DNA of 64,000 bases from Candidatus Cloacimonadales bacterium (GCA_963665815.1 OY762463.1:1632001-1696000), one strand, 5' to 3'. Counted from the first letter of the stretch, positions 2,273-38,044 are shown. Notes: generated from the letters alone by a model not told the origin. A program made the numbers and translations.

Positions 2273-3301
2273 TTACTTGTTTACTGACTTCTCAGAGAAA
2301 GTTAACTTAACACCTTCCCCACAGTTTCTGCACATTTTTATTGCAGATCTGTTCGTCAGAATGGTATTCCTCATTTTCTGGAATTTTTCGTTCTTAAAAA
2401 TAGATTTTACGGAATTTGTTTTTACATTGCCAACAGGATAATCAATATCTTTGTCGAAACAACAGACTGCCATTTCCCCATTCCAGTTTATCACAGGCTG
2501 ATCCCAGATTCTGCGGCAGCGATTCTTAATACCAAACTTCAACTCAAAATCATCACCTGAAATCTTGTAACGTCTGTATTTGGGGTTTTCCGGTAGAAAA
2601 TTCTTGATGTCATCTTTTTCATAAATCTGAACTGTCTTCAACGAAAGTGAATCTACTCCCAATTCCTTAGCCAGATTACGAATTGACTCTATTTCATGTT
2701 CATTATGTTTCATTACAATAAACTGCCAGAGAATTTTAGGGAATATTGACTTCTTCTTCTTCTTTGCTTCAACAAGCTTCCTGACATTCTCTTTAACCTT
2801 ATCAATTTCACCATTGATGCGGTACTGATTATATGTTTCCTGAGAAGCTCCATCAAGAGATACAATAAGTCTATCAAGTCCTGAATCCACTATTTCCTCA
2901 GCAGGTGGCAGAATGTTAGCATTCGTGGAAACCAATGTATACAGACGCTTAGAGTGTGCATATTTGATCATCTTCACCATGTCTTTATTCAGGAAAGGTT
3001 CTCCCTGATTCCACAAAATCAGCATAAAAGCATATTCGGAAACTTCATCTATCACCTTTTTATACAATTCAAAATCCATGTATCCCTTTGCCCTTTTGAG
3101 GGTTCCGTTTCCGGAAGGACACATAGGACACCGAAGATTACAAATATTGGTCGGTTCAATCATTATAACACCGGGCATTCCCCATACGTATGCCTTTCGG
3201 GTTAAAATCGAAAAACCGTAAGATGCATATTTAAGCAGAGAATTGAACAATCTTTTCCAGGTGAAAATTCTAAAAAAAACATTTATCTTTCTTTTAAGCA
3301 T
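2273..3301 (-). CDS. Radical SAM protein with C-terminal SPASM/twitch-like domain
   Basis: CNLRCPMC motif, GEP and SLDG motifs, C-terminal CRRIW...GEMAVCC...CRNC. Confidence 0.85.
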   Translation of the reverse strand: MLKRKINVFFRIFTWKRLFNSLLKYASYGFSILTRKAYVWGMPGVIMIEPTNICNLRCPMCPSGNGTLKRAKGYMDFELYKKVIDEVSEYAFMLILWNQGEPFLNKDMVKMIKYAHSKRLYTLVSTNANILPPAEEIVDSGLDRLIVSLDGASQETYNQYRINGEIDKVKENVRKLVEAKKKKKSIFPKILWQFIVMKHNEHEIESIRNLAKELGVDSLSLKTVQIYEKDDIKNFLPENPKYRRYKISGDDFELKFGIKNRCRRIWDQPVINWNGEMAVCCFDKDIDYPVGNVKTNSVKSIFKNEKFQKMRNTILTNRSAIKMCRNCGEGVKLTFSEKSVNK

Positions 3302-7393: not shown

Positions 7394-8809
7394 TCAATCC
7401 TTTGTAACCTGATTCTTAACATAATATTCCTCAAGTACATGCTGTCCAACTTGCTTAAGTAAAAAAATGTAAACCTTTAGAAGATTTTCAATCTGCTTTC
7501 TGAATTTTAAACATTCATAAATATTGTTTTTAAAACTTCCATCTGAGGCAAAATTGATATAACAGGAAGAACATAAATATCTTGCCCAGCAATTAGCACA
7601 TGTTTTCTCTCTGAACTCAATCCATTTATTAACAATAACTGACATTCCCTGATAATCCAGTCCATCTTCAACAGAACCTATTTTAAAATCATGATCTATC
7701 TTCTCACAAATGTAATATGATCCCTCAGATGAAACAAAAAGCTTCTGATTTCCAGGAACACATGTTTTATAGCTTATGTACTCACCATACTCACGCTTAT
7801 GAATAAAAGAAAGTGAATCCATAAAAATATGATTATCCAAAGACATATCTCCGCTTTTCAGACCTTGCACTAAGTCAAAGATTTCGGAGTTACCTTTTAC
7901 ACTATCCATGTCACTGTTAAGAAAATACTCGGTATAATACTGCTTTCTCTCATCATGTGTTGGATGCATTCTGGATATTCTCAGATTCAATTTAAGATTC
8001 TTTCGTAAATCAACAAGTTTGTTGTATTCATCTAAATTTGTAACAGTAGCCAACAATAGAATATTCTGACTATGCTTATCGATTTTACTTTTGATTAACT
8101 CAATATTTCGCTCTACTATATTGTATGTGAATGTTCCGTTAGCATGGACTCTATGTTTATCATGAATCTCTTTCAACCCATCAAAACTTATTGAAATGTT
8201 AAATGCATGCTTTACTAAATATTCAATGTTCTCTGAATCAAGTAGATATCCATTTGTTGTTATTGCATATCTAATGTTAAGATTTAAAGTGCTGCAATAC
8301 TGTACAATCTTTTCTATCAGATCCATATTAAGTAAAGGTTCTCCCCCATAAAATCCTACAAGAAGGTCTTTTCTACCGTTCTTTAAGCAAATCTCGTATA
8401 CTTTTTGAATCGCAGCAATCGCTATTTCATAGGTCATTACTTTGCTGGAATGTTTTCTCAATTTATTTTCTTCGTAAGAACCACCATAAATACAATAAGA
8501 ACATCTGAAATTGCAGTTTTCTGTAATACAAAGAGTTATCGCTTCAGGGCAAATACTCTCAGCATTTACTTCAGGTTTAAAGTACACTGCATCCTTATCA
8601 TCGATACTACTTAACAGAGTTTGAAAATCATTGTAAATTTCTCTCGCATTCCTGAATATCCCTATATATCTTTCGACATAGTCTTCCCCAGACATTGATA
8701 TCAAGCTATTCAATGTTTTATACACCACTTCATTAATTCTGACCATTTGTCCTGTTACATCAATATAAATGTAAAACTCATTCTCAAACTTGAATTTCTT
8801 AATATTCAT
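7394..8809 (-). CDS. Radical SAM/SPASM peptide maturase (cluster 1)
   Basis: TENCNFRCSYCIY, FYGGEPLL, ITTNG; SPASM cysteines CVPG..LFV..G..YICEK and CANCWARYLCSSC..C; N-terminal ~80 aa RRE-like extension. Confidence 0.9.
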   Translation of the reverse strand: MNIKKFKFENEFYIYIDVTGQMVRINEVVYKTLNSLISMSGEDYVERYIGIFRNAREIYNDFQTLLSSIDDKDAVYFKPEVNAESICPEAITLCITENCNFRCSYCIYGGSYEENKLRKHSSKVMTYEIAIAAIQKVYEICLKNGRKDLLVGFYGGEPLLNMDLIEKIVQYCSTLNLNIRYAITTNGYLLDSENIEYLVKHAFNISISFDGLKEIHDKHRVHANGTFTYNIVERNIELIKSKIDKHSQNILLLATVTNLDEYNKLVDLRKNLKLNLRISRMHPTHDERKQYYTEYFLNSDMDSVKGNSEIFDLVQGLKSGDMSLDNHIFMDSLSFIHKREYGEYISYKTCVPGNQKLFVSSEGSYYICEKIDHDFKIGSVEDGLDYQGMSVIVNKWIEFREKTCANCWARYLCSSCYINFASDGSFKNNIYECLKFRKQIENLLKVYIFLLKQVGQHVLEEYYVKNQVTKD

Positions 8810-9789
8810 TACCGGCTCAACCTGAATTTATAATAATTCTGTGAACCAGAATCTTGAATATGAACAAATTTGTCATCCACAATCATTGTATTCATAACAG
8901 TATAAATATTATCGGGAATCTTCCAGAATTGAATAAGATTAAAATTACTGTCATATTTACAGAGATACTCTCGAATCTCGAAAGCAGCTTTTATCTGCGA
9001 AGAACTTGAGTTTTTGTAATCTATTTTTGCATCAGTATTTCCCATAAACGTATGAATCACAAATATCTCATTATCAGAAGAATCGATGTTCAACACATAA
9101 GACTTCTCTGTTGGAAGATTGTCTGAAAACAAATTCTCAACTGAAATTAGCTCGTTTTTAACTTCATCATACATATAGATGTTTGATTTGTACTGAGTAA
9201 ATGCTAAATAATATTTTCCATTAGATTTCAACAATGAATTTTCTCTTTCCGTTCTTTCTATACCTATGTCATCGAATAACTTACTAAGGTCAATCCTTTG
9301 CTTTACTGAATCATTTTCTATGTTGAAGTACTTGCAGCCTGGGAGAGCATAGAATTGGGAGAAAGACACTTTGCCTTCATCCAGATATAAATCTGAAGGC
9401 AATACAGCTTTCATTGAAGAAAGAAATTCACCTTCTATGCTAAAGGTTGAGATTCTATTACTACCAATATCCGATACCAGTAAATTATCTCCAACAACAA
9501 GTATTTTCCCATTTAAAGACAATTCTCCGGGACCTTTACCTTCTTTACCAATCTTGTGAATAAATGAATAATCCTCTGAACTATATACATATACTGAGTG
9601 AGATGTATCATAGAAGAAAATCTTCCCGTCACTATATTCTACATCGAAAAATCCCATATTCATTTCACAATTTTCCTGCCATCCTAATGAATCTGCAACG
9701 GTTAAAGAACCTTCTTTCAATCGTGAGCTACATCCGAAAATTAACAGAGATAACAAAATAGATAAGACAATAATTCTTTCTTTAAACAT
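8809..9789 (-). CDS. 6-bladed beta-propeller (NHL/TolB-like) lipoprotein (cluster 1)
   Basis: Lipobox LIFGC; IGKEGKGPGEL and LLVSD..SNRISTFS..GEFL blade motifs; stop overlaps the rSAM start. Confidence 0.8.
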   Translation of the reverse strand: MFKERIIVLSILLSLLIFGCSSRLKEGSLTVADSLGWQENCEMNMGFFDVEYSDGKIFFYDTSHSVYVYSSEDYSFIHKIGKEGKGPGELSLNGKILVVGDNLLVSDIGSNRISTFSIEGEFLSSMKAVLPSDLYLDEGKVSFSQFYALPGCKYFNIENDSVKQRIDLSKLFDDIGIERTERENSLLKSNGKYYLAFTQYKSNIYMYDEVKNELISVENLFSDNLPTEKSYVLNIDSSDNEIFVIHTFMGNTDAKIDYKNSSSSQIKAAFEIREYLCKYDSNFNLIQFWKIPDNIYTVMNTMIVDDKFVHIQDSGSQNYYKFRLSR

Positions 9790-9832
9790 ATAAACTCCAA
9801 TTCATAGTGAGGGAATTATCTATTATTTATTG

Positions 9833-10003
9833 TTATTTAGAATTTGAAGATTGACCACCAAGAAGGTCGTCAATGTAAGCATTTGAAGAGTGAACACTTG
9901 ATGCATGTGCAACGTCGCATTCACAGACTGATTTTCTGCCTTTAACTTCGTTTTCATCACTTGTTGTAACAGGGCTAGAAACTACATCATAAGTACTTGT
10001 CAT
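9833..10003 (-). CDS. Putative RiPP precursor peptide, 56 aa: MTSTYDVVSSPVTTSDENEVKGRKSVCECDVAHASSVHSSNAYIDDLLGGQSSNSK
   Basis: Translated by hand (below the ORF-track cutoff). Strong SD TAAGGAG 6 nt before ATG 10003, TAA at 9835-9833, CxC motif, first gene before the propeller and rSAM. Confidence 0.8.
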   Translation of the reverse strand: MTSTYDVVSSPVTTSDENEVKGRKSVCECDVAHASSVHSSNAYIDDLLGGQSSNSK

Positions 10004-12832: not shown

Positions 12833-12908
12833 TGGGGTGGCTGATGGGACTCGAACCCACAACGCCTGGAACCACAATCCAGTGCTCTACCATTGAACTA
12901 CAACCACC
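12833..12908 (-). tRNA. tRNA-His (GTG), G-1 and CCA encoded
   Basis: GGTGGTTGTAGTTCAATGGTAGAGCACTGGATTGTGGTTCCAG...GGTTCGAGTCCCATCAGCCACCCCA. Confidence 0.97.
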
Positions 12909-12917
12909 ATTGAAAAA

Positions 12918-12994
<77 letters not shown>

Positions 12995-13035
12995 GCTTAT
13001 CAAAAAAAACTGCTCGCCTTTAACGACAAGCTCTA

Positions 13036-13112
13036 TGGTAGCGGCGCAGGGACTCGAACCCCGGACACTCGGATTATGATTCCGATGCTCTAACCAACTG
13101 AGCTACGCCGCC
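13036..13112 (-). tRNA. tRNA with CAT anticodon, probably elongator Met
   Basis: GGCGGCGTAGCTCAG...TCGGAATCATAATCCGA...CGCCGCTACCA; lacks initiator signatures. Ile2 is not fully excluded. Confidence 0.9.
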
Positions 13113-13126
13113 GCGTATTTAATAAA

Positions 13127-13203
<77 letters not shown>

Positions 13204-26216: not shown

Positions 26217-26840
26217 ATGGACGAAGTAATCGGACAAGAATTAGAGCAGAGTCCTGAGGAGAAACTTCAGGCATTATTTAGTCTCAAGGCAAAACTTGAG
26301 GATGATTTTGTAGCTATTGGACAGCTTTTGTCAGAAGTAAAAAGAAAAGGGCTGTATAAAATTAAAGGTTATAACAAATTTAAGGATTTCATCGAACAGG
26401 AATATAATATAGCCGGAACATTTGCCTCAAAGCTGATTTCCATATATGATCTTTTTGTTGATGAACTTGATATAGATGAATCTTCTCTGAAAAACATCGG
26501 TGTTGATAAACTTAACATGATAAAGCCGCTTGTTAAAAACAAAACTTATTCGGAATCAGAAGAATGGCTTAACAAAGCTAATGAGCTTTCTGCTACTGAT
26601 CTGAGAGAAGATATCAAGGAAGTTCGTAAGCAAACCCAATCCAAGTCAATGAAAGAAGTTCTCATTGACCAGTTCTACGAAACAATGGTAACATTCTTCA
26701 ATTGCTCCAGAAAAGAGCTAAATTATAAACTGGCTATTTATTTTCAGGACACTGACCTTGAACAGGTTAAGAATGAAATTAAAATAAAACAGAGAAATTA
26801 TGAAAAGGAAAGCGAAGGGGAGGGTCCCGGCATTAGTTGA
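26217..26840 (+). CDS. Hypothetical protein, DUF3102/plasmid-partition (PF49)-like DNA-binding candidate
   Basis: F.AIG.LL.EVK...LY...GY..FKDFIE.EY.....A.KLI pattern. Confidence 0.5.
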   Translation: MDEVIGQELEQSPEEKLQALFSLKAKLEDDFVAIGQLLSEVKRKGLYKIKGYNKFKDFIEQEYNIAGTFASKLISIYDLFVDELDIDESSLKNIGVDKLNMIKPLVKNKTYSESEEWLNKANELSATDLREDIKEVRKQTQSKSMKEVLIDQFYETMVTFFNCSRKELNYKLAIYFQDTDLEQVKNEIKIKQRNYEKESEGEGPGIS

Positions 26841-26881
26841 TAAGAATCAGATCTAAACAAAAAACTGATAATGAGGTAAAA

Positions 26882-28441
26882 ATGCGCAAATTAAAAATAT
26901 TATGGGTAGATGATGAAATAGACTTACTGGAACCGTTTGTAATATTCCTGCAGGATAAAGGATATCACGTGCAGAAGGTGTCTAATGGAACAGATGCTGT
27001 TGCAATGGTTCTTAACGAGAAATTCGATCTGGTGCTTCTCGATGAGATGATGCCCGGAATGGACGGACTTGCTACTCTTCAGGAGATAAAACAAATTAAT
27101 CCTAATCTGGCTGTTGTTATGGTTACCAAATCCGAAGAAGAAGGATTGATGGATAAAGCAATTGCCCGTCAGATCTCTGACTATCTGATTAAACCTATTA
27201 ATCCTAATCAGATTATTATGACAGTGAAGAAAATTTTCCAGGCTGATGAAATAAGACACAATCAGATTGGTGAAGAATACTCCAGATATATTGCTCAACT
27301 GAATCAATCTCTCTTCCAGAGTCCGGACTGGAATGACTGGAAAAACATATATAATGAAATGTGTAAATGGGATGTTGTTATCGATGAAATAAACGATCAG
27401 GCCCTTGCTCACACTCATTTTCTGGAAAAACGTAATTGTAATACCGAGTTCACAAACTACATATCATCGAACTATTCTGACTGGTTGCAGAGTGATGAGA
27501 GACCGACCTTCTCATTTGACGTACTTTCCGAAACTGTAACCCCGCTTTTTGATGAAGGTAAACCGGTTTACTTCATAATTCTGGATTGCATGAGACTGGA
27601 CCAGTATCTCGCAATCGAACCTTTCCTTCAGGAATTGTTTGATGTTGACCTTGATCTGTATTACTCTATTCTCCCAACTGCAACTCCATATTCGAGAAAC
27701 TCGCTGTTCAGCGGACTTCTTCCAATTGATATTGCAAGAATGTTCCCGCAATACTGGAATGACTCCTCCGACAATGAAAACAGTCGTAACAGAAACGAAC
27801 ATCAGCTTCTTGATGCTCATATTAACGATTTGGGATACAATATCAATCCAACTTCCAAGTATATAAAAATATTCAATATGGAAGAAGCAAATTTTGTACT
27901 TAGAAAAATCAATTCCTGGTCTAAAGAAAAGCTGGTTGTTCTGGTATATAACTTCCTGGATTTACTGGCTCACCATAGATCTAAAGACAGTATACTGAAA
28001 GAAGCAATTCCGGATGAAGAAGCACTGAGAGCATTCACAAAACACTGGTTCCTGCATTCAGCATTTTACGATGCACTGAAACAAATTGCTGAACAGGATG
28101 CAACTGTTGTTATTACGACTGATCACGGTTCAATTCGTGTAAACAGAGCTACTCAGGCTATTGGTGATAAAGATACAACAATCACTGTACGTTACAAGCA
28201 GGGAAGAAATCTGACATGTAATGACAGACATGCTATCTACCTGAAAGATCCGAAAGATTTCGGATTACCATCTAACAACATTGTAGATAACTACATATTT
28301 GCCAAAGATGATTACTACTTTGTATATCCAAATTCATTCCACCAGTATCAGAGACAGTATAACGGAACATTCCAGCATGGTGGTATATCCATGGAGGAAA
28401 TGCTCCTGCCATTGGCTGTCTGCCGATCTAAAAAGAAATAA
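26882..28441 (+). CDS. porX: PorX-type response regulator (REC + PglZ alkaline-phosphatase-like domain)
   Basis: ILWVDDEIDLL, LDEMMPGMDGL, ILPTATPYSRN, TTDHG, FQHGGISMEEM; ATG 26882 follows GAGGT. Confidence 0.88.
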   Translation: MRKLKILWVDDEIDLLEPFVIFLQDKGYHVQKVSNGTDAVAMVLNEKFDLVLLDEMMPGMDGLATLQEIKQINPNLAVVMVTKSEEEGLMDKAIARQISDYLIKPINPNQIIMTVKKIFQADEIRHNQIGEEYSRYIAQLNQSLFQSPDWNDWKNIYNEMCKWDVVIDEINDQALAHTHFLEKRNCNTEFTNYISSNYSDWLQSDERPTFSFDVLSETVTPLFDEGKPVYFIILDCMRLDQYLAIEPFLQELFDVDLDLYYSILPTATPYSRNSLFSGLLPIDIARMFPQYWNDSSDNENSRNRNEHQLLDAHINDLGYNINPTSKYIKIFNMEEANFVLRKINSWSKEKLVVLVYNFLDLLAHHRSKDSILKEAIPDEEALRAFTKHWFLHSAFYDALKQIAEQDATVVITTDHGSIRVNRATQAIGDKDTTITVRYKQGRNLTCNDRHAIYLKDPKDFGLPSNNIVDNYIFAKDDYYFVYPNSFHQYQRQYNGTFQHGGISMEEMLLPLAVCRSKKK

Positions 28442-28801: not shown

Positions 28802-29659
28802 CTAATGTTTATTTTTTAATTCGTTAAATTGTTGTTGAAGCTTATAGAGTTCAGACTTTATTGCTTCAATCTCTGACTTAGTTTGTACAGTATCCTCTGT
28901 AGTGGTGTGATGCATTGTGAACTCAGGGCTGTACACGAATACACTATTACCGTTAGGATTCACATCTATACTGTATGTTTCTGTGAATTTATCATAATCC
29001 GGATGGAGAAGCATTCTCAGGAGTTTTCCTTTCCTGACTGTAAGAATTTCTATTCCATTCTTGTGGCTCTTATCCATAGCAATAGAGTAAAGATCGTTAT
29101 TGTTCTCAATCTTGTTTCCAATTGCTTCGATAATGATGTCACCGGCTTTTAATCCGTTTTTATCTGCCGGACTACCATCAATAACAGTCCTTACAAGCAA
29201 CCCGTTTTTAACTTCAAAGAATTCCATAAGTTGAGGAGTAAGTGTCTGTGTTTCTACTCCCAGTACATTATTGAAGAATACGGAAAACACATTAACAGGA
29301 GTGTCCGGAGTAACTTTCTCTGCAAGAGTCAGCTTTACTTTTCTCTTCTTCCCATTTTCAAGAATGAGAAATTCCAGCTTATCTCCCGGTTTTTTACCTT
29401 TCAAAACATTAACAATATCTTCCTGATTATGTATTTTCTTTGAATTAATCTCCAGAACCAGCATATTAACTTTCAAGCCTGCTTCTTCAGCAGGAGAATC
29501 TTCCACAATAGCTGTAAGAAGAACACCATAGTCAGAGTTCAATTTCTTCAGAACCTGTTCGTAAGGCACTTCTATGAAGATACCTATGTAAGGCTCAGGA
29601 ATTGACGCTGCCAGCGCTCCTGCTGCAAAGATTAAGATAAGAATCAGACTTCGTTTCAT
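28802..29659 (-). CDS. Exported tandem-PDZ-domain protein
   Basis: Signal peptide MKRSLILILIFAAGALAA, two PDZ repeats (IVEDSPAEEAGLK; VIDGSPADKNGLKAGD), C-terminal coiled coil, no protease domain visible. Confidence 0.8.
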   Translation of the reverse strand: MKRSLILILIFAAGALAASIPEPYIGIFIEVPYEQVLKKLNSDYGVLLTAIVEDSPAEEAGLKVNMLVLEINSKKIHNQEDIVNVLKGKKPGDKLEFLILENGKKRKVKLTLAEKVTPDTPVNVFSVFFNNVLGVETQTLTPQLMEFFEVKNGLLVRTVIDGSPADKNGLKAGDIIIEAIGNKIENNNDLYSIAMDKSHKNGIEILTVRKGKLLRMLLHPDYDKFTETYSIDVNPNGNSVFVYSPEFTMHHTTTEDTVQTKSEIEAIKSELYKLQQQFNELKNKH

Positions 29660-29670
29660 TTCTGTCTCCA

Positions 29671-30123
29671 CTAATACTGAAGTTTAACTTTAGGCTGCTG
29701 CCCTTTGTATTCACTTACGTAGAATATTGATCTGTTGTTTCTGTCTCTGACCTTCTTGATGACATAAGATTTGGATTCATCAAGATTGGAAAGATTGTTC
29801 ACAGGAACAAAATTACTCTGATCGACTATACTGTTCGGTGCACTCTGGGCAATACCTGAGTTTTCTGCAAATAACTGGTATTGTTTACCTTCAGCACGCC
29901 AGAATGCGTAGTGAGCCTTATCAGCCAAATCCGGTTTGAAAATGAATACTGCAAAAGCAAATACCATGACAACCAGAGCTGCAGTCGCAAAGGCAGGATA
30001 CCAGCCAAAGCTTTTTTTTCTGTGGAAATACTCTTTCTCAAGCTCGTATTTTAGTCTTACAGAAAACGGTCCCGGATGAACTTCCGGTGTGTTTATGTTC
30101 TCAAGATACTTTTTGATAGACAT
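29671..30123 (-). CDS. Putative membrane anti-sigma factor
   Basis: One transmembrane helix after a short N-terminal domain; overlaps the 3' end of the ECF sigma gene. Confidence 0.6.
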   Translation of the reverse strand: MSIKKYLENINTPEVHPGPFSVRLKYELEKEYFHRKKSFGWYPAFATAALVVMVFAFAVFIFKPDLADKAHYAFWRAEGKQYQLFAENSGIAQSAPNSIVDQSNFVPVNNLSNLDESKSYVIKKVRDRNNRSIFYVSEYKGQQPKVKLQY

Positions 30124-30646
30124 CTTCCAATACCTCCGCCGGGATTAATTTTTCTAATTTCTTCAGTGATCTGTGTAAATTGACTCTTAAAGTACTCTCT
30201 TTTTTTCCCAGCATTTCGGAAATTTCACTGAAGCTTTTCTTCTCGAAAAAACGTAATATTATAATATTCTGATCTTTTTCAGGCAGTTGCTTTATATACT
30301 GATGTATGAAATCGTATGAAAATCTTTCGGTCTTCTCATCAAGTACAGCCTTGTCGACATACATGTTTTCAATTTTCTTATGTCTTTTGTCTGCACGAAA
30401 ATAATTACTTATCTCACTGACTGCAATTCTGAACAGCCAGGCAGAAAACGGTATGGAGCGCCACTTGAACAGGTGTAGCTTATCCATAGCCTTAAAAAAA
30501 GTGTTTGAAACGATTTCTTCAGCATAACTCCTGTTACCAACCCGGTACATAACAAACCGGAATATATCAGGAAAGTATCTCTGATATAAAGCTTCAAAAG
30601 CCTGAATATCTTTTTTAGCCTGTAATACTAATTTTTTTTCGTCCAT
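30101..30646 (-). CDS. ECF-family RNA polymerase sigma factor
   Basis: AFEALYQRY, AEEIVS.TF, FSAWLFRIA; region 4 LP...ILRFFE.KSFSEISEMLG; ATG 30646 follows GAGGTG. Confidence 0.93.
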   Translation of the reverse strand: MDEKKLVLQAKKDIQAFEALYQRYFPDIFRFVMYRVGNRSYAEEIVSNTFFKAMDKLHLFKWRSIPFSAWLFRIAVSEISNYFRADKRHKKIENMYVDKAVLDEKTERFSYDFIHQYIKQLPEKDQNIIILRFFEKKSFSEISEMLGKKESTLRVNLHRSLKKLEKLIPAEVLEDVYQKVS

Positions 30647-30662
30647 AATCACCTCTGCAAAC

Positions 30663-30690
30663 ATAACGCCATGCTTATGTTTTAGTTTCA
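30663..30690 (-). promoter_or_regulatory. Putative ECF autoregulatory promoter
   Basis: TGAAAC-N16-CGTTAT immediately upstream of the sigma gene SD. Confidence 0.6.
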
Positions 30691-30778
30691 TGTTTTTTCA
30701 TTTTTTGCAGACTTTAAAAGTTGTCAACCCGGAAGTTATTGAAATTTAGGGAGTTCTGAGATCAATTATGATCATAAC

Positions 30779-31264
30779 CTACGCATTATTCACCTGACCA
30801 AGTTTCTTCTGTATCTTATGAGCAAAAGGAAGCTCAATAAACCTTGGTAGAGAGTTATGTTCTTTTTTGAATGTCAGAAAGATAAATTTGTGTTCCAGCA
30901 GATTCAGGTTCGCAGAAATATCATATAGCGGAGGTATAACAACAGTTACCATCTTCCCCACTCTGGCAAGCTCATCAAAAAATCGTTGAGGATCGTCCAC
31001 ATGTTCCATTGTGTGAGAGCATAAAACAGTATCGAACTGCTTATTTGCAAAGGGCAGGTTATAGATATCGTTTACCAGCACAAAATTAGGAACATCCTTA
31101 TGCTGGAAGATATCACAATTAGTTCCTCCACCGTCGGTTTTACCGCAGCAGATGTTAAGATCCCATTTTTGTTTCTTCAGGATTCGAGTTTTCTCAAGTT
31201 TGTAACTGATATAGTGGGCAATAACTACATAAGCAATAATAAAAGCGACAATAATATAAAACAT
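30779..31264 (-). CDS. Class I SAM-dependent methyltransferase-like protein with N-terminal TM helix
   Basis: LNICCG motif I variant; LPFANKQFDTVLCSHTMEHV. Confidence 0.75.
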   Translation of the reverse strand: MFYIIVAFIIAYVVIAHYISYKLEKTRILKKQKWDLNICCGKTDGGGTNCDIFQHKDVPNFVLVNDIYNLPFANKQFDTVLCSHTMEHVDDPQRFFDELARVGKMVTVVIPPLYDISANLNLLEHKFIFLTFKKEHNSLPRFIELPFAHKIQKKLGQVNNA

Positions 31265-31412
31265 AGGAACTCCTTATTGATTAACTGACTCAACAGCAAG
31301 TCAAATTATGTAATCAATAAGTCGCAGCACATTCAAACCTCATCGCAGTGCAGTATACTGACTGTTTTGTGTCAAGGGAAATAGATCAATCCAAAAAGAC
31401 ATCTACGAAAAA

Positions 31413-33143
31413 TCATCCATGATTGAGCATATTGAAGTACTCTCCCTTCACTTCCATTAATTCGCCGTGACTTCCCTCTTCAGATATTGCTCCATTACTC
31501 ATAACACATATCTTGTCACATTCTTTTATTGTAGACAACCTGTGTGCGACAATTATCACAATAATATCATCCGGTAATTTGTGCAGTGTTTCCATTATGC
31601 TTTTTTCACTGATTGGATCAATGTTTGATGTTGCTTCATCCAATAATAGAATTTTAGGATTCTTTATCAGAGCTCTTGCCAGACTTATCCTTTGTTTTTG
31701 CCCAATTGAAAGACTGTTTCCTTTTACTCCGACATGCGTATCATATTTATCCGGCAAGTTCATTATTTGAGCATGGACAGATGCCATTTTACAAACAGCT
31801 ACAACATCTTCATATCCTGCTGACATGTTCGCAAATCGTATATTATCCATAATACTGCCATCAATTAGAACTGGTTCCTGATCGACAATTCCGATATATT
31901 TTCTTAATGCTACAATTTGACTATCACTTAGCTTATCACCATTTATATAAATCTCACCTGATATTGACTTGTGTAATCCTGATAATATTTTCAATAAAGT
32001 TGTTTTTCCACATCCGGACACTCCCACAATACCTATTTTCTCTCCCTGATTAATCTCAATATTCACATTTTCCAATATAGGCTTGTCTTCTTTGTAAAAA
32101 AATTTCAATTCTCTGATTGAAAGCCTTTCAATTACAGATATGTTATAGTTGTAATCTATTACTTCACTCGGGAATGTCATTATTTCTTTAACTCGCTTCA
32201 GGGAAACCATTGCCGTTTGCAATCTTACATTTAAATCAATAAGATTCCTTGCAGGATTGAACAAATACCTGATAAAAGAATTGAATGCAATCATAGAACC
32301 AATTGTCAAACGGTCGTTAATAATCTCATATCCACCATACCCAATAATTATTAATGGAATCAGACCAATTATCATATTGGAAGAAACCTGGTAGATACTG
32401 GTTATCTTTGTAAGTTTTACAGATTCTCTATATGCTGACTTCGATGAAGAGAAAAACTGGTAAATACTGAATCGGCTTCGAAGAAACTGTTTTATCAGAC
32501 GAATAAGTGATAAACACTGCTCCAACGTAGAAACGCTTTTTGCCATTACTTCGTATGTAACCTCTGTTTGCGCTTTAATTCTCTTTCCGAAGAACACGGA
32601 TAACCATACATATGGAATTATTAGAATTACTGAGAATAATGCAAGCTTGAAATGAATTGTAAAAATCACTGATAATCCTGCAATTAAATACAGAAGATCC
32701 TTGAGTACCGCTACAAATGTTTCTGCGAAAAAAGATCTCAGACCTTCAGAATCACTATTTATCCTGGAAAGAAGATATCCTGAACTGTACTTGTTAATTG
32801 TACTCAGAGGAGCATTATTAAGCCTTTCTAAAAGTGCAACTTTAATATCCAATATGATTTTATCATTTACCCGTTTCAACATTAAAGAATGAATATAGGC
32901 TACCGCATTCTGAAATAATAGTATTGATAAAGTTATACCAACTAATACTATTAGTTCCGTTAAGTTCTTCCCGGGTAATGTAACATCAATAATTCTTCTT
33001 GTTATTAATGGTGTAGGCAAGATCAGTAGAGAAAGGATAATGATCAGACAGCAGACAAGCAGAATACTCTTCATGTATTTTTTATAGAAGTTCAGATATA
33101 AAAATCTGATAAAATTCAAGTTTTCATTCTTTGCTATTTTCAT
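31413..33143 (-). CDS. ABC exporter (TMD+NBD), no C39 peptidase domain (cluster 2)
   Basis: N-terminal TM helices, GVSGCGKTT, LSIGQKQR, LLLDEATS, VAHRLST; 576 aa. Confidence 0.92.
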   Translation of the reverse strand: MKIAKNENLNFIRFLYLNFYKKYMKSILLVCCLIIILSLLILPTPLITRRIIDVTLPGKNLTELIVLVGITLSILLFQNAVAYIHSLMLKRVNDKIILDIKVALLERLNNAPLSTINKYSSGYLLSRINSDSEGLRSFFAETFVAVLKDLLYLIAGLSVIFTIHFKLALFSVILIIPYVWLSVFFGKRIKAQTEVTYEVMAKSVSTLEQCLSLIRLIKQFLRSRFSIYQFFSSSKSAYRESVKLTKITSIYQVSSNMIIGLIPLIIIGYGGYEIINDRLTIGSMIAFNSFIRYLFNPARNLIDLNVRLQTAMVSLKRVKEIMTFPSEVIDYNYNISVIERLSIRELKFFYKEDKPILENVNIEINQGEKIGIVGVSGCGKTTLLKILSGLHKSISGEIYINGDKLSDSQIVALRKYIGIVDQEPVLIDGSIMDNIRFANMSAGYEDVVAVCKMASVHAQIMNLPDKYDTHVGVKGNSLSIGQKQRISLARALIKNPKILLLDEATSNIDPISEKSIMETLHKLPDDIIVIIVAHRLSTIKECDKICVMSNGAISEEGSHGELMEVKGEYFNMLNHG

Positions 33144-33161
33144 TGTCAGTGTATTCAGAAA

Positions 33162-34556
33162 TTACGAAGTTTCACTCTGGTTGAAGTAATTATCGATGCT
33201 TTCCTTACCTACATGGTCAAGAAGTCTGACATATAGTTGAAGCATACCTTCAATTTCACTTTTCTTTTCTGAGCATATTGAATTACTTGGAGATATATTT
33301 TCTGATCTCACGAAACTCACATAGCATAAATCGCAAAGATGAGCTCCCCAGCACTTGCTGCAGTTCTTCCCTTTGAAATAAAGCCAATCTCTTTCAATTT
33401 CATTTTTTCTGGCAGAAATTATTCCTTTATCAAGATCTCCTATGGGCATTGCGTGATCAATTTTCTCACACATATGAAAATTTCCTTCGGGAGAGACAAA
33501 CAACATTGCATTTCCCGGAGAACAGGCATGATAATTGACATCACTTCCTGAGTTTCTGAAATGTATCCTCTTTATACTTGTAATCAGATCCAGGTCTCCA
33601 CTCAAAAGCTTGCGATTTTTAAATCTATCTATAAATCCTGCTCTTCTAGCTCCGGTAATATCATCAATTCTACTTACTTCATCTTCATCAAAAGATTCAA
33701 TTTTTTCAGCATCATCGCTATCCCAAATCATAGATACATGTGAAAAAATTGGATTATCCTGTTGCAGATCAAAAAGTTCAACGAAAATTCCGGGAGTTGC
33801 CGCAGTAGCTACGAAATTAACATATTCCCTGTAATAATCAGGATACCTGTCTGAAATAGGCTTCAAGTTGTTCATTATTCTATCATAGGTCGGTTCACCA
33901 TTCAAAGCGATTCTGTATTTGTCATGAATTTCTTTTGTCCCATCTACACTTACAAATAATCTGATCTTGTTGGCTAAAAAGAAATCGATATGCTCTTCTG
34001 ACATTGCATAACCATTAGTAGTAATTGAAAATGTTATTTCGGACGGAAGCTCTTTTAAGTTTTTCACAATGTATTTCATAATGTCGAAATTTAATAGTGG
34101 TTCTCCTCCATAAAATCCGATATTCAGGTTCTCTTCCACATTGTAGTTTTCGTCAATCCATCTGATAAACTTGTCTGCTATCGTATAAGACATTTTCTTT
34201 GTTGAACTTGTTCTTGTGTAAGAATAGCTGTCCGAGTAGATACAGTACTTGCATTTTAAATTGCAGGCTTCAGTTAACCCAATAACAATTTTGAAAGGAT
34301 TTTTCTTCCTGTTTTCGTTCTTGATAGGCAAAAATGAGAATCCATTGCTTTCAGCTCTGTTTTTCATGTAATTCCGGAATTTATCGAAAACTTTCTCTAT
34401 TTCTGCATTTTCAGCATACTTATCAATATACTCATCTCTTGACATGCCCAAAAGATCATAAAATGTATTATACATGAATTCATTGATCTTAATAATGTTC
34501 GAGTTTAAAGAATCATAAAAGTAGACACCACTTACAGCTCTAAACTTTTTAAGCAC
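33162..34556 (-). CDS. Radical SAM/SPASM peptide maturase (cluster 2)
   Basis: TEACNLKCKYCIY, FYGGEPLL, ITTNG; CSPG..LFV..G.FHMCEK and CSKCWGAHLCDLC..C; RRE-like N-terminus. Confidence 0.9.
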   Translation of the reverse strand: MLKKFRAVSGVYFYDSLNSNIIKINEFMYNTFYDLLGMSRDEYIDKYAENAEIEKVFDKFRNYMKNRAESNGFSFLPIKNENRKKNPFKIVIGLTEACNLKCKYCIYSDSYSYTRTSSTKKMSYTIADKFIRWIDENYNVEENLNIGFYGGEPLLNFDIMKYIVKNLKELPSEITFSITTNGYAMSEEHIDFFLANKIRLFVSVDGTKEIHDKYRIALNGEPTYDRIMNNLKPISDRYPDYYREYVNFVATAATPGIFVELFDLQQDNPIFSHVSMIWDSDDAEKIESFDEDEVSRIDDITGARRAGFIDRFKNRKLLSGDLDLITSIKRIHFRNSGSDVNYHACSPGNAMLFVSPEGNFHMCEKIDHAMPIGDLDKGIISARKNEIERDWLYFKGKNCSKCWGAHLCDLCYVSFVRSENISPSNSICSEKKSEIEGMLQLYVRLLDHVGKESIDNYFNQSETS

Positions 34557-34573
34557 TTCATCCTCCAGTATAT

Positions 34574-35596
34574 TTATGATCCCTTCACTTCGGATTTCGT
34601 TAACTTAAATATTATTCCATTATAGTTAGATACCAGAAATACTTTTCCATTTGAGGACAGTATTTCTCCTGACAAAGTCATCATATCTCCGGGTAGCTCA
34701 CATGAAGATTTCAATTCTCCTGTGATTGAGTATTCGCAAACAAACTCTCTTATATCATAAAAATGCTTAATATCTTCTATCTTTGTCAGTGATGAATTTT
34801 TCTTCTGGGCTGGATCTACACCATATGCTCTTTCAACAACGTAAAATCTGTCGTTCATCAGCACTGCATTACTTGTTTTTGAGTATTCCGGAACAGCATC
34901 CCTGTTTACTGATGATGAGAACTGAATTTTCTCATTATTCAAATCTTTGATACACCCAACTCTATTTATTGGTACTCCTATTAGTGAATTCTCATATTTT
35001 ATAATATCTATATGTTTATTTTCTTCCTTTAAATCATTATCCGAGCAGAATTGATCCAACTTCCTCACAGTTTTAAACTCTCCATTATTATATACCGTTA
35101 ACTTATAATCAGGTGCAAAATGAGCAGTTGTAACATATATGCTGTCTTCATAATTGTATACTTTACCAATCGGGTGGAATTTCTCAGCTTTAAGAAAATC
35201 ACCTTGCTTAGAAATCCATTGTATTCTGGAATTAGCAAAATCACCTACAACTATATCACCATTTTTATCAAATGTGAATGAGTTAGGATAAAGAAATTCT
35301 CCGGGACCTCTGCCCTTACTTCCAAATTTTCTCAGAAATTTCAAACTGTTAATCTCGTAAACATAAAAAACTGCATTATCAATATCCAATACGTACAGTT
35401 CTTCACCATCAATATTGTGAATATTGTTAGCTCCAAAAGTAAAGTTTTCATCATCCTGCCATCCCAATGAATCAGCTACTACTAATACAGATTTTGAACC
35501 ACTTTCACCACTCTTGTCCTGCCTGACACAAGAAACAGAGTTCAAAATTATAAGTGTTAATACTGTGAACGTTAAACTTGCTATTCCTTTCCTCAT
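34574..35596 (-). CDS. 6-bladed beta-propeller lipoprotein (cluster 2)
   Basis: Lipobox-like NSVSC; FGSKGRGPGEFLYP; IVVGD..NSRIQW...G.FL. Confidence 0.8.
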   Translation of the reverse strand: MRKGIASLTFTVLTLIILNSVSCVRQDKSGESGSKSVLVVADSLGWQDDENFTFGANNIHNIDGEELYVLDIDNAVFYVYEINSLKFLRKFGSKGRGPGEFLYPNSFTFDKNGDIVVGDFANSRIQWISKQGDFLKAEKFHPIGKVYNYEDSIYVTTAHFAPDYKLTVYNNGEFKTVRKLDQFCSDNDLKEENKHIDIIKYENSLIGVPINRVGCIKDLNNEKIQFSSSVNRDAVPEYSKTSNAVLMNDRFYVVERAYGVDPAQKKNSSLTKIEDIKHFYDIREFVCEYSITGELKSSCELPGDMMTLSGEILSSNGKVFLVSNYNGIIFKLTKSEVKGS

Positions 35597-35669
35597 ATAT
35601 TCTCCTAAAATTAAGCTATCCGATGTTTTCCCTACTTATAAAATACAGCCCTTCAACTTAATTATCTTA

Positions 35670-35888
35670 CTATGATATACCTGAACTTGTATTGTTGCTG
35701 GATGAATTTACCAGTTTTCTGGCAGCATTCTGTTTAGCGCATCTTCTAGTTGATGCATCTCCAGCAGGATATGGTAAATTCTCACAAGTTTGACATTCCT
35801 GTGTGCTTCCACTGCCTGTGTCTTTATCAAGTGTAGAAGCTGTACTCACTATTTCCATTGAACATAAGTCAATTACATTATTATCCAT
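35670..35888 (-). CDS. Putative RiPP precursor peptide, 72 aa
   Basis: SD GAGGAG before ATG; four Cys including CQTC; Ser/Thr/Asn-rich; first gene of the propeller-rSAM-ABC operon. Confidence 0.82.
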   Translation of the reverse strand: MDNNVIDLCSMEIVSTASTLDKDTGSGSTQECQTCENLPYPAGDASTRRCAKQNAARKLVNSSSNNTSSGIS

Positions 35889-36150
35889 AATTTCTCCTCA
35901 TAATTTTATTACATCAGATAGCTTTTATTGTTTATTGTTTTGTTTAGTATTTTCTATCTTGCTAAGTAAAAAATATGTCGAAGGGGAAAACAAATGAGAT
36001 CCCTCTTACCTCTACATATATAAATCTTTTCTAAAGAACTTTTTGATATGTGTCAAGTTTTTTGTTTATACAAACTCATTTATGAATATTAAATTCATTC
36101 TAAAGAGATTAATGATTATCATATCAATTCCTGCTCACCATTATTTCCAC

Positions 36151-36637
36151 CTTCCCTCACAAAAAGCGGAAGTTGGTGAATGTTCTCCAAACCTTCACCG
36201 AGTCATAATAGCACAATCTTTCAGTTGTAAGTAGCCGATCTTATTCTTTTTTACTGTATAATAAATTTTCCCGTGAAGAAATCCTGAAGCCTTGGAAGGA
36301 TTTCAGGTGAGATTTATGGTTCCAGCTTGCTGGAAATACATTTAAAAAAGATGTCATTTCTTTTGCTTCGTTTTCTTTAGTCATATAAAGAAAATGAAGG
36401 ACTGTATCAATACTCTATCTCTTTTTGTTCTCTTCCCTCACAAAAAGCAGGAGTTGGTGAATGTTTTCCAAACCTTCACCGAGTCATTAAGTCAAAGAAA
36501 TTACAGAAAATCAATACTCTATCTCTTTTTGTTCTCTTTCCTCACAAAAAGCAGAAGTTGGTGAATGTTTTCCAAACCTTCACCGAGTCATTAAGTCAAA
36601 GAAATCACAGAAAATCAATACTCTATCTCTTTTTGTT
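36151..36637. repeat. 104-bp tandem repeat (2.2 units, 36406-36637) plus a separate 56-bp core copy (36151-36206)
   Basis: ATCAATACTCTATCTCTTTTTGTT starts at 36406, 36510 and 36614. The core CCTCACAAAAAGC...GTTGGTGAA-N13-TTCACCGAGTCAT occurs three times. Confidence 0.92.
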
Positions 36638-36700
36638 GACAGAAATTATCCCTTACAAGTTGATGTTCCTGAAAAAACATTAAAAAAGCAGGAGATTTCT

Positions 36701-38044
36701 ATGCCGTATATTTCTAATACTGAACAAGATAGAAAAGAAATGCTTCAGAAAATCGGTGTTTCCGAATTTAAGGAACTTATAGCCGATGTTCCGGAAAAAC
36801 TCCAGTTAAATAAACTGCTTGATCTGGAAGAAGCATATTCAGAAATCGAAATCACACGTAAAATGACCTGTCTTGCTAACAAGAACAAAACTACCGTTAC
36901 AACAAACTCATTCCTCGGTGCAGGAGTTTACGATCACTTTGTACCGGCTGTTGTGGATCACGTTATATCCAGACCGGAATTCCTCACAGCTTACACACCT
37001 TATCAGGCAGAAGTAAGCCAGGGAACACTCCAGTACATCTATGAGTATCAGACATTAATCTGCAACCTTACCGGAATGGAAGTAGCTAACGCCGGTATGT
37101 ATGACGGTGCTTCCGCTGCAGCCGAAGCTATTCTTATGGCAGTCAGAAAAACCAGAAAGAATAAAGCGGTTATCGCAGGAACAATCAATCCGGATTACGT
37201 TAAAGTAATTAAAGCCTATACAGAAGGTATTGGTGTTGAAATTGTTGTTGTTAACAATAAAAACGGACTTGTTGATGCTGAAGATCTGAAAGCTAAAATG
37301 GATAATGATACAGCCTGTTTCCTTCTGCAGACACCTAACTTCTGCGGTAGTCTGGAAAATCCGTTTGAAATAGAAGAAATCGTTCACAGCTTCAAAAAAG
37401 CTCTTTATATTGTCGCAGTAGATCCTATCTCTCTTGCAGTTCTTAACGCACCATCAGAATACAAAGCTGACATCGTTATCGGTGAAGGTCAGGTTCTGGG
37501 TAATAAACCTAATTTCGGTGGACCATTATGCGGATTCTTTGCAACTCATACTTCACTTGCCCGTATGATGCCGGGACGTATTGTTGGCGCAACCAAAGAC
37601 GTTGAAGGTAAAAAAGGCTATGTCCTTACACTTCAGGCTCGTGAACAGCATATAAGAAGAACCAAAGCAACCTCAAACATCTGTTCCAACCAGTCTCTCG
37701 CAGCTCTGGCAGCAACAGTCTACATGGTAACAATGGGACCGGAAGGGCTCAAAGAAGTTGCAGTTCAGTCTACCACTAAAGCACATTACCTTGCAGAAAA
37801 ACTCACAGCTATAGATGGCGTAAGTCTGGCAACAGATAACCCATTCTTTAAAGAGTTTGCCGTTAAGTTCGACAAGCCTGTAAAAGATGTTCAGAAAGCT
37901 CTGCTCGAAAAAGGTATTATTGCCGGTACAGATCTTTCAAAATGCGGATTTGAGAACACCCTTCTCATTGCTGTAACAGAAATGAAGACAAAGAAACAAC
38001 TCGATGAATTAGTTGAAGCTGTTAAGGAGGTATTCAATGCCTGA
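36701..38044 (+). CDS. gcvPA: Glycine dehydrogenase (decarboxylating) subunit 1
   Basis: FLGAGVYDH, TAYTPYQAEVSQG, AREQHIRR.KATSNICSN. Confidence 0.97.
   Translation: MPYISNTEQDRKEMLQKIGVSEFKELIADVPEKLQLNKLLDLEEAYSEIEITRKMTCLANKNKTTVTTNSFLGAGVYDHFVPAVVDHVISRPEFLTAYTPYQAEVSQGTLQYIYEYQTLICNLTGMEVANAGMYDGASAAAEAILMAVRKTRKNKAVIAGTINPDYVKVIKAYTEGIGVEIVVVNNKNGLVDAEDLKAKMDNDTACFLLQTPNFCGSLENPFEIEEIVHSFKKALYIVAVDPISLAVLNAPSEYKADIVIGEGQVLGNKPNFGGPLCGFFATHTSLARMMPGRIVGATKDVEGKKGYVLTLQAREQHIRRTKATSNICSNQSLAALAATVYMVTMGPEGLKEVAVQSTTKAHYLAEKLTAIDGVSLATDNPFFKEFAVKFDKPVKDVQKALLEKGIIAGTDLSKCGFENTLLIAVTEMKTKKQLDELVEAVKEVFNA

Follow-up and report, generated by a model that had tools for sequence, protein, structure and literature searches.

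A four-gene operon with a candidate Cys-bearing precursor, a propeller lipoprotein, a radical SAM/SPASM maturase and an ABC transporter in a Candidatus Cloacimonadales bacterium

In this study, we analysed a stretch of 64,000 nucleotides (nt) from a Candidatus Cloacimonadales bacterium (GCA_963665815.1, OY762463.1:1632001-1696000), which is called the window below; positions are counted from its first letter. Four co-oriented and tightly spaced open reading frames (ORFs), called within the 64-kb window, form a real operon on the minus strand at 35888..31413, and the gaps between successive ORFs are 73, 17 and 18 nt. They encode a small Cys-bearing peptide (pre2), a propeller lipoprotein (prop2), a radical SAM/SPASM maturase (rSAM2) and an ATP-binding cassette (ABC) transporter. 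A preliminary description of this DNA had claimed a compact co-oriented operon of four genes, and the coordinates and the strand are as it gave them. The features of the operon are as follows.

35894..35899, minus strand: Shine-Dalgarno (SD) sequence GAGGAG, read directly, 5 nt ahead of the pre2 ATG
35670..35888, minus strand: pre2, candidate precursor peptide of 72 aa (SD, codon usage, Cys positions)
34574..35596, minus strand: prop2, DUF5128 propeller lipoprotein of 340 aa (Pfam and AlphaFold2 model)
33162..34556, minus strand: rSAM2, radical SAM/SPASM peptide maturase of 464 aa with a putative RRE-like N-terminal domain (motifs, profiles, structure matches)
31413..33143, minus strand: ABC half-transporter of 576 aa, exporter type, without C39 peptidase domain (Pfam ABC_membrane and ABC_tran)

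Products of the operon

The translation of the first ORF was identical, letter for letter, to the 72-aa four-Cys precursor of the preliminary description, and the SD sequence GAGGAG named there was found at 35899..35894. Pre2 has Cys residues at positions 9, 32, 35 and 50; it contains no Trp and lacks a hydrophobic stretch. In its likely layout, a leader of about 30 aa precedes a CxxC motif with Glu on either side, after which comes a polar tail rich in Ser and Asn. The in-frame codon score of pre2 was +0.185 bits/codon, the long genes of the operon spanning 0.12 to 0.26, and just 2 of 60 spurious antisense ORFs reached this level. The GC content at third codon positions (GC3) was 0.233. Cys made up 5.6% of pre2 and 0.93% of 20 ordinary proteins of the window, a difference of about six-fold, and within the spacer the operon strand has no other Cys-bearing ORF of at least 20 aa. 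Pre2 matched neither a Pfam nor an NCBIfam family. On the basis of the strong SD, the coding-type codon usage, the low GC3, the Cys content and the position, we favour the view that pre2 is a real gene.

The maturase rSAM2 passed the Pfam Radical_SAM cut-off (64.5 bits vs 29.5). It holds exactly 10 Cys, of which C98, C102 and C105 form the CX3CX2C motif and seven are C-terminal (C345, C363, C399, C402, C408, C411 and C428), and all 10 were invariant across 15 of 15 aligned sequences. We take the spacing of the seven C-terminal Cys to be the SPASM signature for two auxiliary clusters; no match to the Pfam SPASM model was reported on rSAM2. The best NCBIfam match was the CcpM profile (TIGR04068), which covered residues 2 to 445, that is, the full length, with 223.8 bits vs a cut-off of 500. 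It was followed by RumMC (162.3 vs 720), TIGR04148 (159.6 vs 300), lachnocin (156.1 vs 550), PapB (140.4 vs 340), SCIFF (113.2 vs 425) and QhpD (TIGR03906, 113.1 vs 453, E 1.2e-32). Among the 25 families listed of the 79 matched, the top curated profiles were all maturases of Cys-containing peptides.

CteB is a thioether-forming SCIFF/thermocellin maturase, and its structure 5wgg was the closest solved structure to rSAM2 by sequence (E 4.4e-25). The AlphaFold2 model of rSAM2 (pLDDT 73.9) matched the fold of the same structure over 479 columns (E 1.2e-20) with approximately 19% identity. Residues 2 to 70 of the model form three strands and then helices, and residues 17 onward align to the N-terminal part of CteB, which is presumably its RRE. 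This suggests that the N-terminus of rSAM2 is a leader-binding (RRE-like) domain. The motifs, the profiles and the CteB matches uphold the earlier claim of a radical SAM/SPASM maturase with an adjacent small Cys ORF and an ABC exporter.

The second gene product, prop2, passed the Pfam DUF5128 cut-off (35.3 bits vs 22.9) and also those of TolB_like and NHL. With Radical_SAM, ABC_membrane and ABC_tran passing as well, the family calls of the preliminary description all hold. The N-terminus of prop2 is a hydrophobic helix that ends in Cys23, which, judged by eye, would be a lipobox. The AlphaFold2 model is a six-bladed NHL-type beta-propeller (pLDDT 80.2, pTM 0.77), in agreement with the propeller claimed earlier. 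Its best fold matches were the NHL-repeat propellers of Mei-P26, TRIM2/3/71 and Brat (TM about 0.6), and it also matched the Bacteroides structural-genomics proteins 3s9j and 4raa, whose function is unknown. Full-length relatives of prop2 in a set of 5.8 billion proteins were two only, with 47% and 30% identity, and both had lipoprotein-like N-termini. In the literature on DUF5128/NHL propellers with radical SAM enzymes or ribosomally synthesised and post-translationally modified peptides, we found no functional study of the propeller; cluster tables in paper supplements may bear on this point. A complex prediction of prop2 (residues 24 to 340, 8-row alignment) with pre2 scored 0.00 vs a mark of 0.32; the controls were not folded, and the result counts neither way.

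The fourth protein passed Pfam ABC_membrane and ABC_tran. Because the exporter profiles HlyB, bacteriocin_ABC and NHLM_micro_ABC1 match only from profile positions 134, 138 and 155, respectively, a C39 peptidase domain is absent from it. The start of the gene sits 18 nt past the rSAM2 stop, and there is no room upstream for such a domain. ABC genes lie near many related rSAM genes, and the most similar of them among the related loci described below adjoins the rSAM gene of locus L002 (31% identity, E 4e-80). A further gene of the window bears on the destination of an exported peptide.

26837-28441, plus strand: PorX orthologue, response regulator of type IX secretion (T9SS) with a PglZ domain (683.8 bits vs a cut-off of 300)

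Since PorX is present in the window, the organism is taken as a diderm of the Bacteroidota and related groups. As the operon has no gene for a membrane-fusion or an outer-membrane component, an exported peptide would get no further than the periplasm, which is also the place expected for the lipoprotein; the exporter direction and the periplasmic destination are what we infer from the genes.

Paralogous and related clusters

The window holds a second, paralogous trio at 10003..7394 on the minus strand, called cluster 1 here (the operon being cluster 2).

9833..10003, minus strand: pre1, candidate precursor of 56 aa with a CxC motif (Cys27, Cys29) between Glu and Asp (SD AAGGAG, codon usage)
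8809..9789, minus strand: prop1, DUF5128 propeller lipoprotein of 326 aa (DUF5128 30.6 bits; 25% identity to prop2, E 8e-17)
7394..8809, minus strand: rSAM1, radical SAM/SPASM maturase of 471 aa (31% identity to rSAM2, E 2e-80)

In both trees described below, rSAM1 and rSAM2 were each other's closest relatives, with support of 98 (FastTree) and 97/93 (IQ-TREE), and the CcpM profile scored 226.7 bits on rSAM1 vs the cut-off of 500. The codon score of pre1 was 0.236 bits/codon, which was reached by 1 of 60 spurious ORFs, and it matched no family. Pre1 and pre2 share a layout of approximately 26 to 31 residues, a Cys pair beside acidic residues and a polar tail, and the SD of pre1 (AAGGAG) lies at a distance like that of the GAGGAG of pre2. 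No shared promoter or operator was seen upstream of the two genes, where the alignment covers the SD region only. There is no transporter after rSAM1 in cluster 1, and for this reason the exporter that serves cluster 1 may be the ABC protein of the operon, at a distance of 21 kb. At 12833..13203 on the minus strand, approximately 2.8 kb from cluster 1, there is a group of four genes for tRNAs (one His, one Arg and two Met), and its surroundings showed no integrase.

In 185,579 species genomes, among which the genome of the window itself is not included, 566 stretches encode a relative of rSAM2, the best being about 30-31% identical. The best non-self relatives in the set of 5.8 billion proteins had 30 to 31% identity. 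Plasmid-borne relatives had at most 28.6% identity among the 12 matches listed, and all 236 matching records were below 60%. The best 80 of the 566 stretches are the related loci of this study, and single loci are given by number (L002 and so on).

All ORFs of at least 30 aa in the 80 loci and the window (8604 ORFs) were surveyed with an iterative propeller-profile search. Propellers were present in 4 of the 80 loci, namely L009, L021, L025 and L027. In L021 (a Bacteroidales genome), L025 (candidate division KSB1) and L027 (Parabacteroides), the gene immediately before the rSAM gene, in the same orientation, encodes a propeller and is itself preceded by a gene for a small Cys peptide; the L009 propeller is approximately 5.5 kb from the rSAM gene on the opposite strand. 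The order of peptide, DUF5128 lipoprotein and rSAM thus has two occurrences in the window, and 3 of the 80 related loci show it as well. Among the 79 loci with an rSAM ORF, 11 have under 1500 nt of upstream sequence, too little for a judgement; L075 and L080, from the clade of L021 and L027, are among them.

All seven propellers examined passed the DUF5128 cut-off. Among eight propellers, the invariant columns were the Gly, Pro and Glu of one NHL-like repeat and one more Gly, and no Cys column was conserved. Because no Cys is kept, it is improbable that the enzyme acts on the propeller, which we rejected as a candidate substrate.

The maturases of L021 and L027 passed TIGR04148 (445.7 and 418.6, respectively, vs 300), and their precursors passed TIGR04149 (29.2 to 33.4 bits vs a cut-off of 25). 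A neighbour in L021 passed the pseudo-rSAM profile TIGR04150 (293.2 bits vs 250), and L021 also encodes an ABC exporter with a C39 peptidase. The enzymes and peptides of L025 and of the window failed the cut-offs of TIGR04148, TIGR04149 and TIGR04150. Trees were built with FastTree on 85 rows and with IQ-TREE on 24 chosen rows, from deeply diverged sequences with long branches. The TIGR04148 clade had support of 100/100 in the IQ-TREE tree of 24 rows; the rSAM pair of the window fell outside it, with no settled placement beyond that. Because propeller clusters occur both within and outside this clade, the association with a propeller spans at least two maturase lineages.

Candidate peptides were picked by eye from the small-ORF listings of 18 related loci. 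A small ORF with CxC or CxxC stood beside the rSAM gene in 12 of them (L002, L003, L004, L005, L007, L009, L010, L013, L014, L021, L025 and L027), and in L003, L004, L005, L025 and L027 the residues next to the motif are acidic. Some of these loci have features of their own. L009 (4770-13523), from Aminicenantia, encodes three rSAM maturases that are paralogues of one another, and five precursors from genes in tandem; every one of these precursors has four Cys and a leader of the GG type. Closely related maturases occur in Methanothrix (L003) and Chlorobiaceae (L005), with tree support of 99 to 100, and short peptides encoded at L003 7227-7376 and L005 4490-4624 have the common core C-x-D-E-C-V-G-G-T-A, which points to one peptide family across domains of life.

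A predicted crosslinked peptide and its lipoprotein

Two genome-mining descriptions of Bacteroidales cassettes date from 2015 and 2023, and both are in silico. A four-gene cluster of B. fragilis with a TIGR04149 peptide, a putative lipoprotein and two rSAM-type proteins appears in the available excerpt of PMC4573289. The excerpt of PMC10352776 gives Bacteroidales clusters with rSAM and pseudo-rSAM genes, in which 'putative signaling proteins' come after the precursors, and states that the class I bacteriocins of Bacteroidales are still uncharacterised. The preliminary description had known of no characterised example from this lineage, and none turned up in our search. The arrangement does have precedents: cassettes of peptide, lipoprotein and rSAM are on record in silico from Bacteroides in these two excerpts, and two such cassettes are among the related loci.

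Judged from its genes, the operon is an uncharacterised variant of this cassette, known in silico from gut Bacteroides. The order of small Cys peptide, DUF5128 lipoprotein and rSAM/SPASM maturase is the same in the window and in the TIGR04148/04149/04150 cassette, the peptides of both carry CxC or CxxC next to acidic residues and have a long tail of polar character, and the cassette member L021 also has an ABC exporter. However, the TIGR04148 score of rSAM2 (159.6 vs 300) marks a different maturase lineage, pre2 does not match TIGR04149 and is without a GG-type leader, no pseudo-rSAM gene is in the operon, and the ABC protein of the window lacks the C39 peptidase domain that L021 has. CcpM, found mostly in Clostridia, resembles rSAM2 as its full-length best profile, and its loci are of the same type (peptide, rSAM and ABC), but the score is under half of the cut-off and pre2 is not strongly Cys-rich; the Bacillota relatives among the 80 loci are without a propeller neighbour, unlike the operon of the window. 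For CteB, the match to rSAM2 takes in the SPASM domain and the presumed peptide-binding domain at the N-terminus, whereas the identity in the structural alignment is only about 19% and pre2 has four Cys rather than the six implied by the name SCIFF.

The qhp operon is another point of comparison. According to the available part of PMC7876137, QhpD forms Cys-to-Asp/Glu thioethers in the small leader-bearing QhpC, and the ABC transporter QhpF exports the product to the periplasm. The window, as known from its genes alone, likewise has a small polypeptide with a presumed leader, an rSAM enzyme and an ABC exporter. Unlike qhp, it has neither Trp nor a quinone, and it lacks a heme subunit, QhpE and QhpG; its propeller is also of another family.

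We lean slightly, and not more than slightly, towards the view that the operon makes a ribosomal, leader-bearing peptide that would be modified by the rSAM/SPASM enzyme, crosslinked by thioethers, exported and handled by the lipoprotein. The product itself is most likely a small Cys-crosslinked peptide. Pre2 would be translated as a 72-aa peptide with a leader of about 30 residues, the CxxC between Glu residues and the polar tail, and the RRE-like N-terminal domain of rSAM2 would bind this leader. In sactipeptides and ranthipeptides, the sulfur of a Cys is bonded to the alpha, beta or gamma carbon of a partner residue. In the cytoplasm, rSAM2 would join a Cys sulfur to a carbon of another residue in this way and form at least one sactionine- or ranthionine-type thioether ring. 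The peptidase-less ABC half-transporter would then carry the product over the inner membrane, and the DUF5128 lipoprotein would bind or otherwise handle the modified peptide in the periplasm as its cognate partner. The gene set, the cofactor motifs and the recurring gene order are read directly from the sequences; that pre2 is the substrate of rSAM2, that the chemistry is of the thioether type and what the lipoprotein does are points that we infer.

Several results weigh against this view. Among the 25 families listed of the 79 matched, rSAM2 scored under every curated cut-off, and therefore its chemistry cannot be transferred from any equivalog. Pre2 has just four Cys, one of them inside the presumed leader, and no similarity between pre1 and pre2 was detectable. 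A word-indexed search of the 5.8 billion proteins for relatives of pre2 returned pre2 alone, and a search of the ESM Atlas returned nothing. The exhaustive phmmer search of 1.84 billion representatives returned pre2 itself and two proteins of 3003 and 1117 aa, whose matches (10 and 4 stretches, respectively) we read as probably compositional. In 5000 runs of a first-order Markov simulation, a chance 72-codon ORF appeared on the same strand of a 1.1-kb intergenic stretch in 479 runs with any start and in 231 runs with ATG only. Because 5 to 10% of the simulations give such an ORF, its length is weak evidence for a pre2 gene.

The remaining points against it concern export and the lipoprotein. 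The operon encodes neither a leader peptidase nor a membrane-fusion protein, and it has no gene for an outer-membrane component; the preliminary description had called the pathway complete, and with these parts missing and the ABC protein lacking a C39 domain, this word cannot be kept. The fold matches of prop2 are binding platforms and proteins of unknown function, among which no enzyme family stands out, and they offer no hint of what it does. The propeller arrangement was found in 3 of the 80 loci only, and the propeller label was weakly clustered on the trees, where 43 of 500 shuffles (FastTree) and 15 of 500 shuffles (IQ-TREE) were as low.

Some of these results bear on whether pre2 is the substrate at all. 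The 72-aa ORF could be a chance ORF or an unrelated small protein, with the substrate of rSAM2 encoded elsewhere. That pre2 is an orphan, that chance produces such ORFs at the rate given above and that pre1 and pre2 are unrelated would agree with this, and SPASM enzymes with protein substrates do exist, as in anSME and in CrpC (PMC13692751, available excerpt). Nevertheless, a small ORF that is preceded by an SD and resembles genes in its codon usage stands at the same position in both clusters, Cys peptides adjoin the rSAM genes of relatives, the propeller has no conserved Cys, and the operon strand offers no other candidate. We consider this explanation very doubtful, the least probable of those weighed here.

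The two other explanations differ from the one that we prefer mainly in the role of the lipoprotein. LanI proteins are the immunity lipoproteins of lantibiotic clusters. If the crosslinked peptide were a bacteriocin, the propeller lipoprotein might confer immunity by sequestering it at the membrane surface, and would then be LanI-like in function, not in fold. The lipoprotein gene directly follows the precursor gene in both clusters of the window and in L021, L025 and L027, and each window cluster pairs a diverged propeller (25% identity) with an unrelated peptide, as would be expected of cognate pairs; the C39-peptidase ABC exporter of L021 is also typical of bacteriocins. Against this stand the lack of an outer-membrane export route in the operon and of a transporter in cluster 1, and family-profile and fold matches that contain no known immunity protein. 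Nor, according to PMC10352776, is any member of these cassettes known to have antimicrobial activity. We regard a bacteriocin with its immunity protein as unlikely, although it is the likeliest of the alternatives.

It is also conceivable that the peptide is not released and becomes, after export, a stable partner of the propeller lipoprotein that is stiffened by its crosslinks, much as QhpC, the gamma subunit with its thioether crosslinks, joins the complex of quinohemoprotein amine dehydrogenase (QHNDH). Peptide, propeller and rSAM recur in all five clusters as a core, whereas the transporter varies, and the lack of an outer-membrane route for the exporter agrees with a periplasmic destination. 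The QhpD profile also matches rSAM2 with the E value given above. QhpB, the beta subunit of QHNDH, is presumably a propeller and would be the fourth matching part. The other three match the qhp operon as given in the available part of PMC7876137. Yet the QhpD score is far under its cut-off (113.1 vs 453), pre2 has no Trp for a quinone cofactor, the heme subunit, the QhpE-like protease and the QhpG-like flavoprotein are not in the operon, and the propeller belongs to another family, DUF5128/NHL with six blades. This makes the explanation improbable in our view, more so than a bacteriocin. Reasoning by this analogy, we give a similarly small chance to the idea that the unit of peptide, propeller and rSAM builds a two-part periplasmic or surface holo-protein, with the peptide as a dedicated partner of the propeller and not a secreted bacteriocin. 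If it were true, DUF5128 propeller lipoproteins would gain their first function, and 'peptide subunits' made by rSAM enzymes would form a class of their own.

Radical SAM peptide clusters are common. In the literature searched, none has been characterised from this bacterial group, nor has any of the lipoprotein-bearing Bacteroides cassettes. The window has two diverged copies of a minimal unit (peptide, propeller lipoprotein and maturase), one of them with its own exporter, and is thus a compact system for asking whether the propeller serves in immunity, as a receptor, in processing or as a holo-protein partner. The crosslink chemistry of a maturase lineage outside the curated families could be determined with it. 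If the preferred reading holds and the product is just another thioether peptide with an accessory lipoprotein, the advance would be incremental.

Composition, flanks and neighbouring genes

The operon had been called AT-richer than its neighbours by eye. This is true (33.8% GC vs 36.7% in the window), and the difference is modest, at the 9th percentile among windows of equal size. A GC scan had been proposed as a check for horizontal acquisition, and the deficit is too small to argue for a foreign origin. With no integrase or tRNA adjoining cluster 2 either, we rejected horizontal acquisition of the operon.

The flanks are those of the preliminary description, with a methyltransferase gene on one side and a repeat-bearing spacer before gcvPA on the other. 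The spacer between pre2 and the divergent gcvPA/gcvPB genes (gcvPA at 36701) is 812 nt long, and at 36125-36637 it carries three copies of an approximately 104-nt repeat, two in tandem with 97% identity and one with 63%. Each copy holds a 31-nt core, which has 3 matches in the whole window, all of them there, vs 0 expected. The folding of the repeat was no better than that of shuffles (z = -0.03), and no Rfam match near the gathering score indicated a glycine riboswitch or another known RNA ahead of gcvPA. A scan of 30700..36800 found no intrinsic terminator, so there is none between the operon and the downstream genes over that range, and promoter-like sites in the scanned region were not in excess (25 vs 27.0 ± 5.6 in shuffles). 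The nearest downstream gene is the following.

31264..30779, minus strand: first gene downstream of the ABC gene, for a small methyltransferase-like protein whose N-terminus is hydrophobic

It belongs to a group of minus-strand genes at 28802-31264, which encode this protein, an extracytoplasmic function (ECF) sigma factor, a 150-aa protein and a protein with two PDZ domains and no protease domain. The 150-aa protein beside the ECF sigma gene has no family match and one hydrophobic stretch, and is possibly an anti-sigma factor. Elsewhere in the window, at 2273-3301 on the minus strand, there is a third radical SAM/SPASM protein of 342 aa, which is unrelated to the peptide clusters; its best profile was that of a tungsten-cofactor oxidoreductase maturase, with 122.4 bits vs a cut-off of 380.

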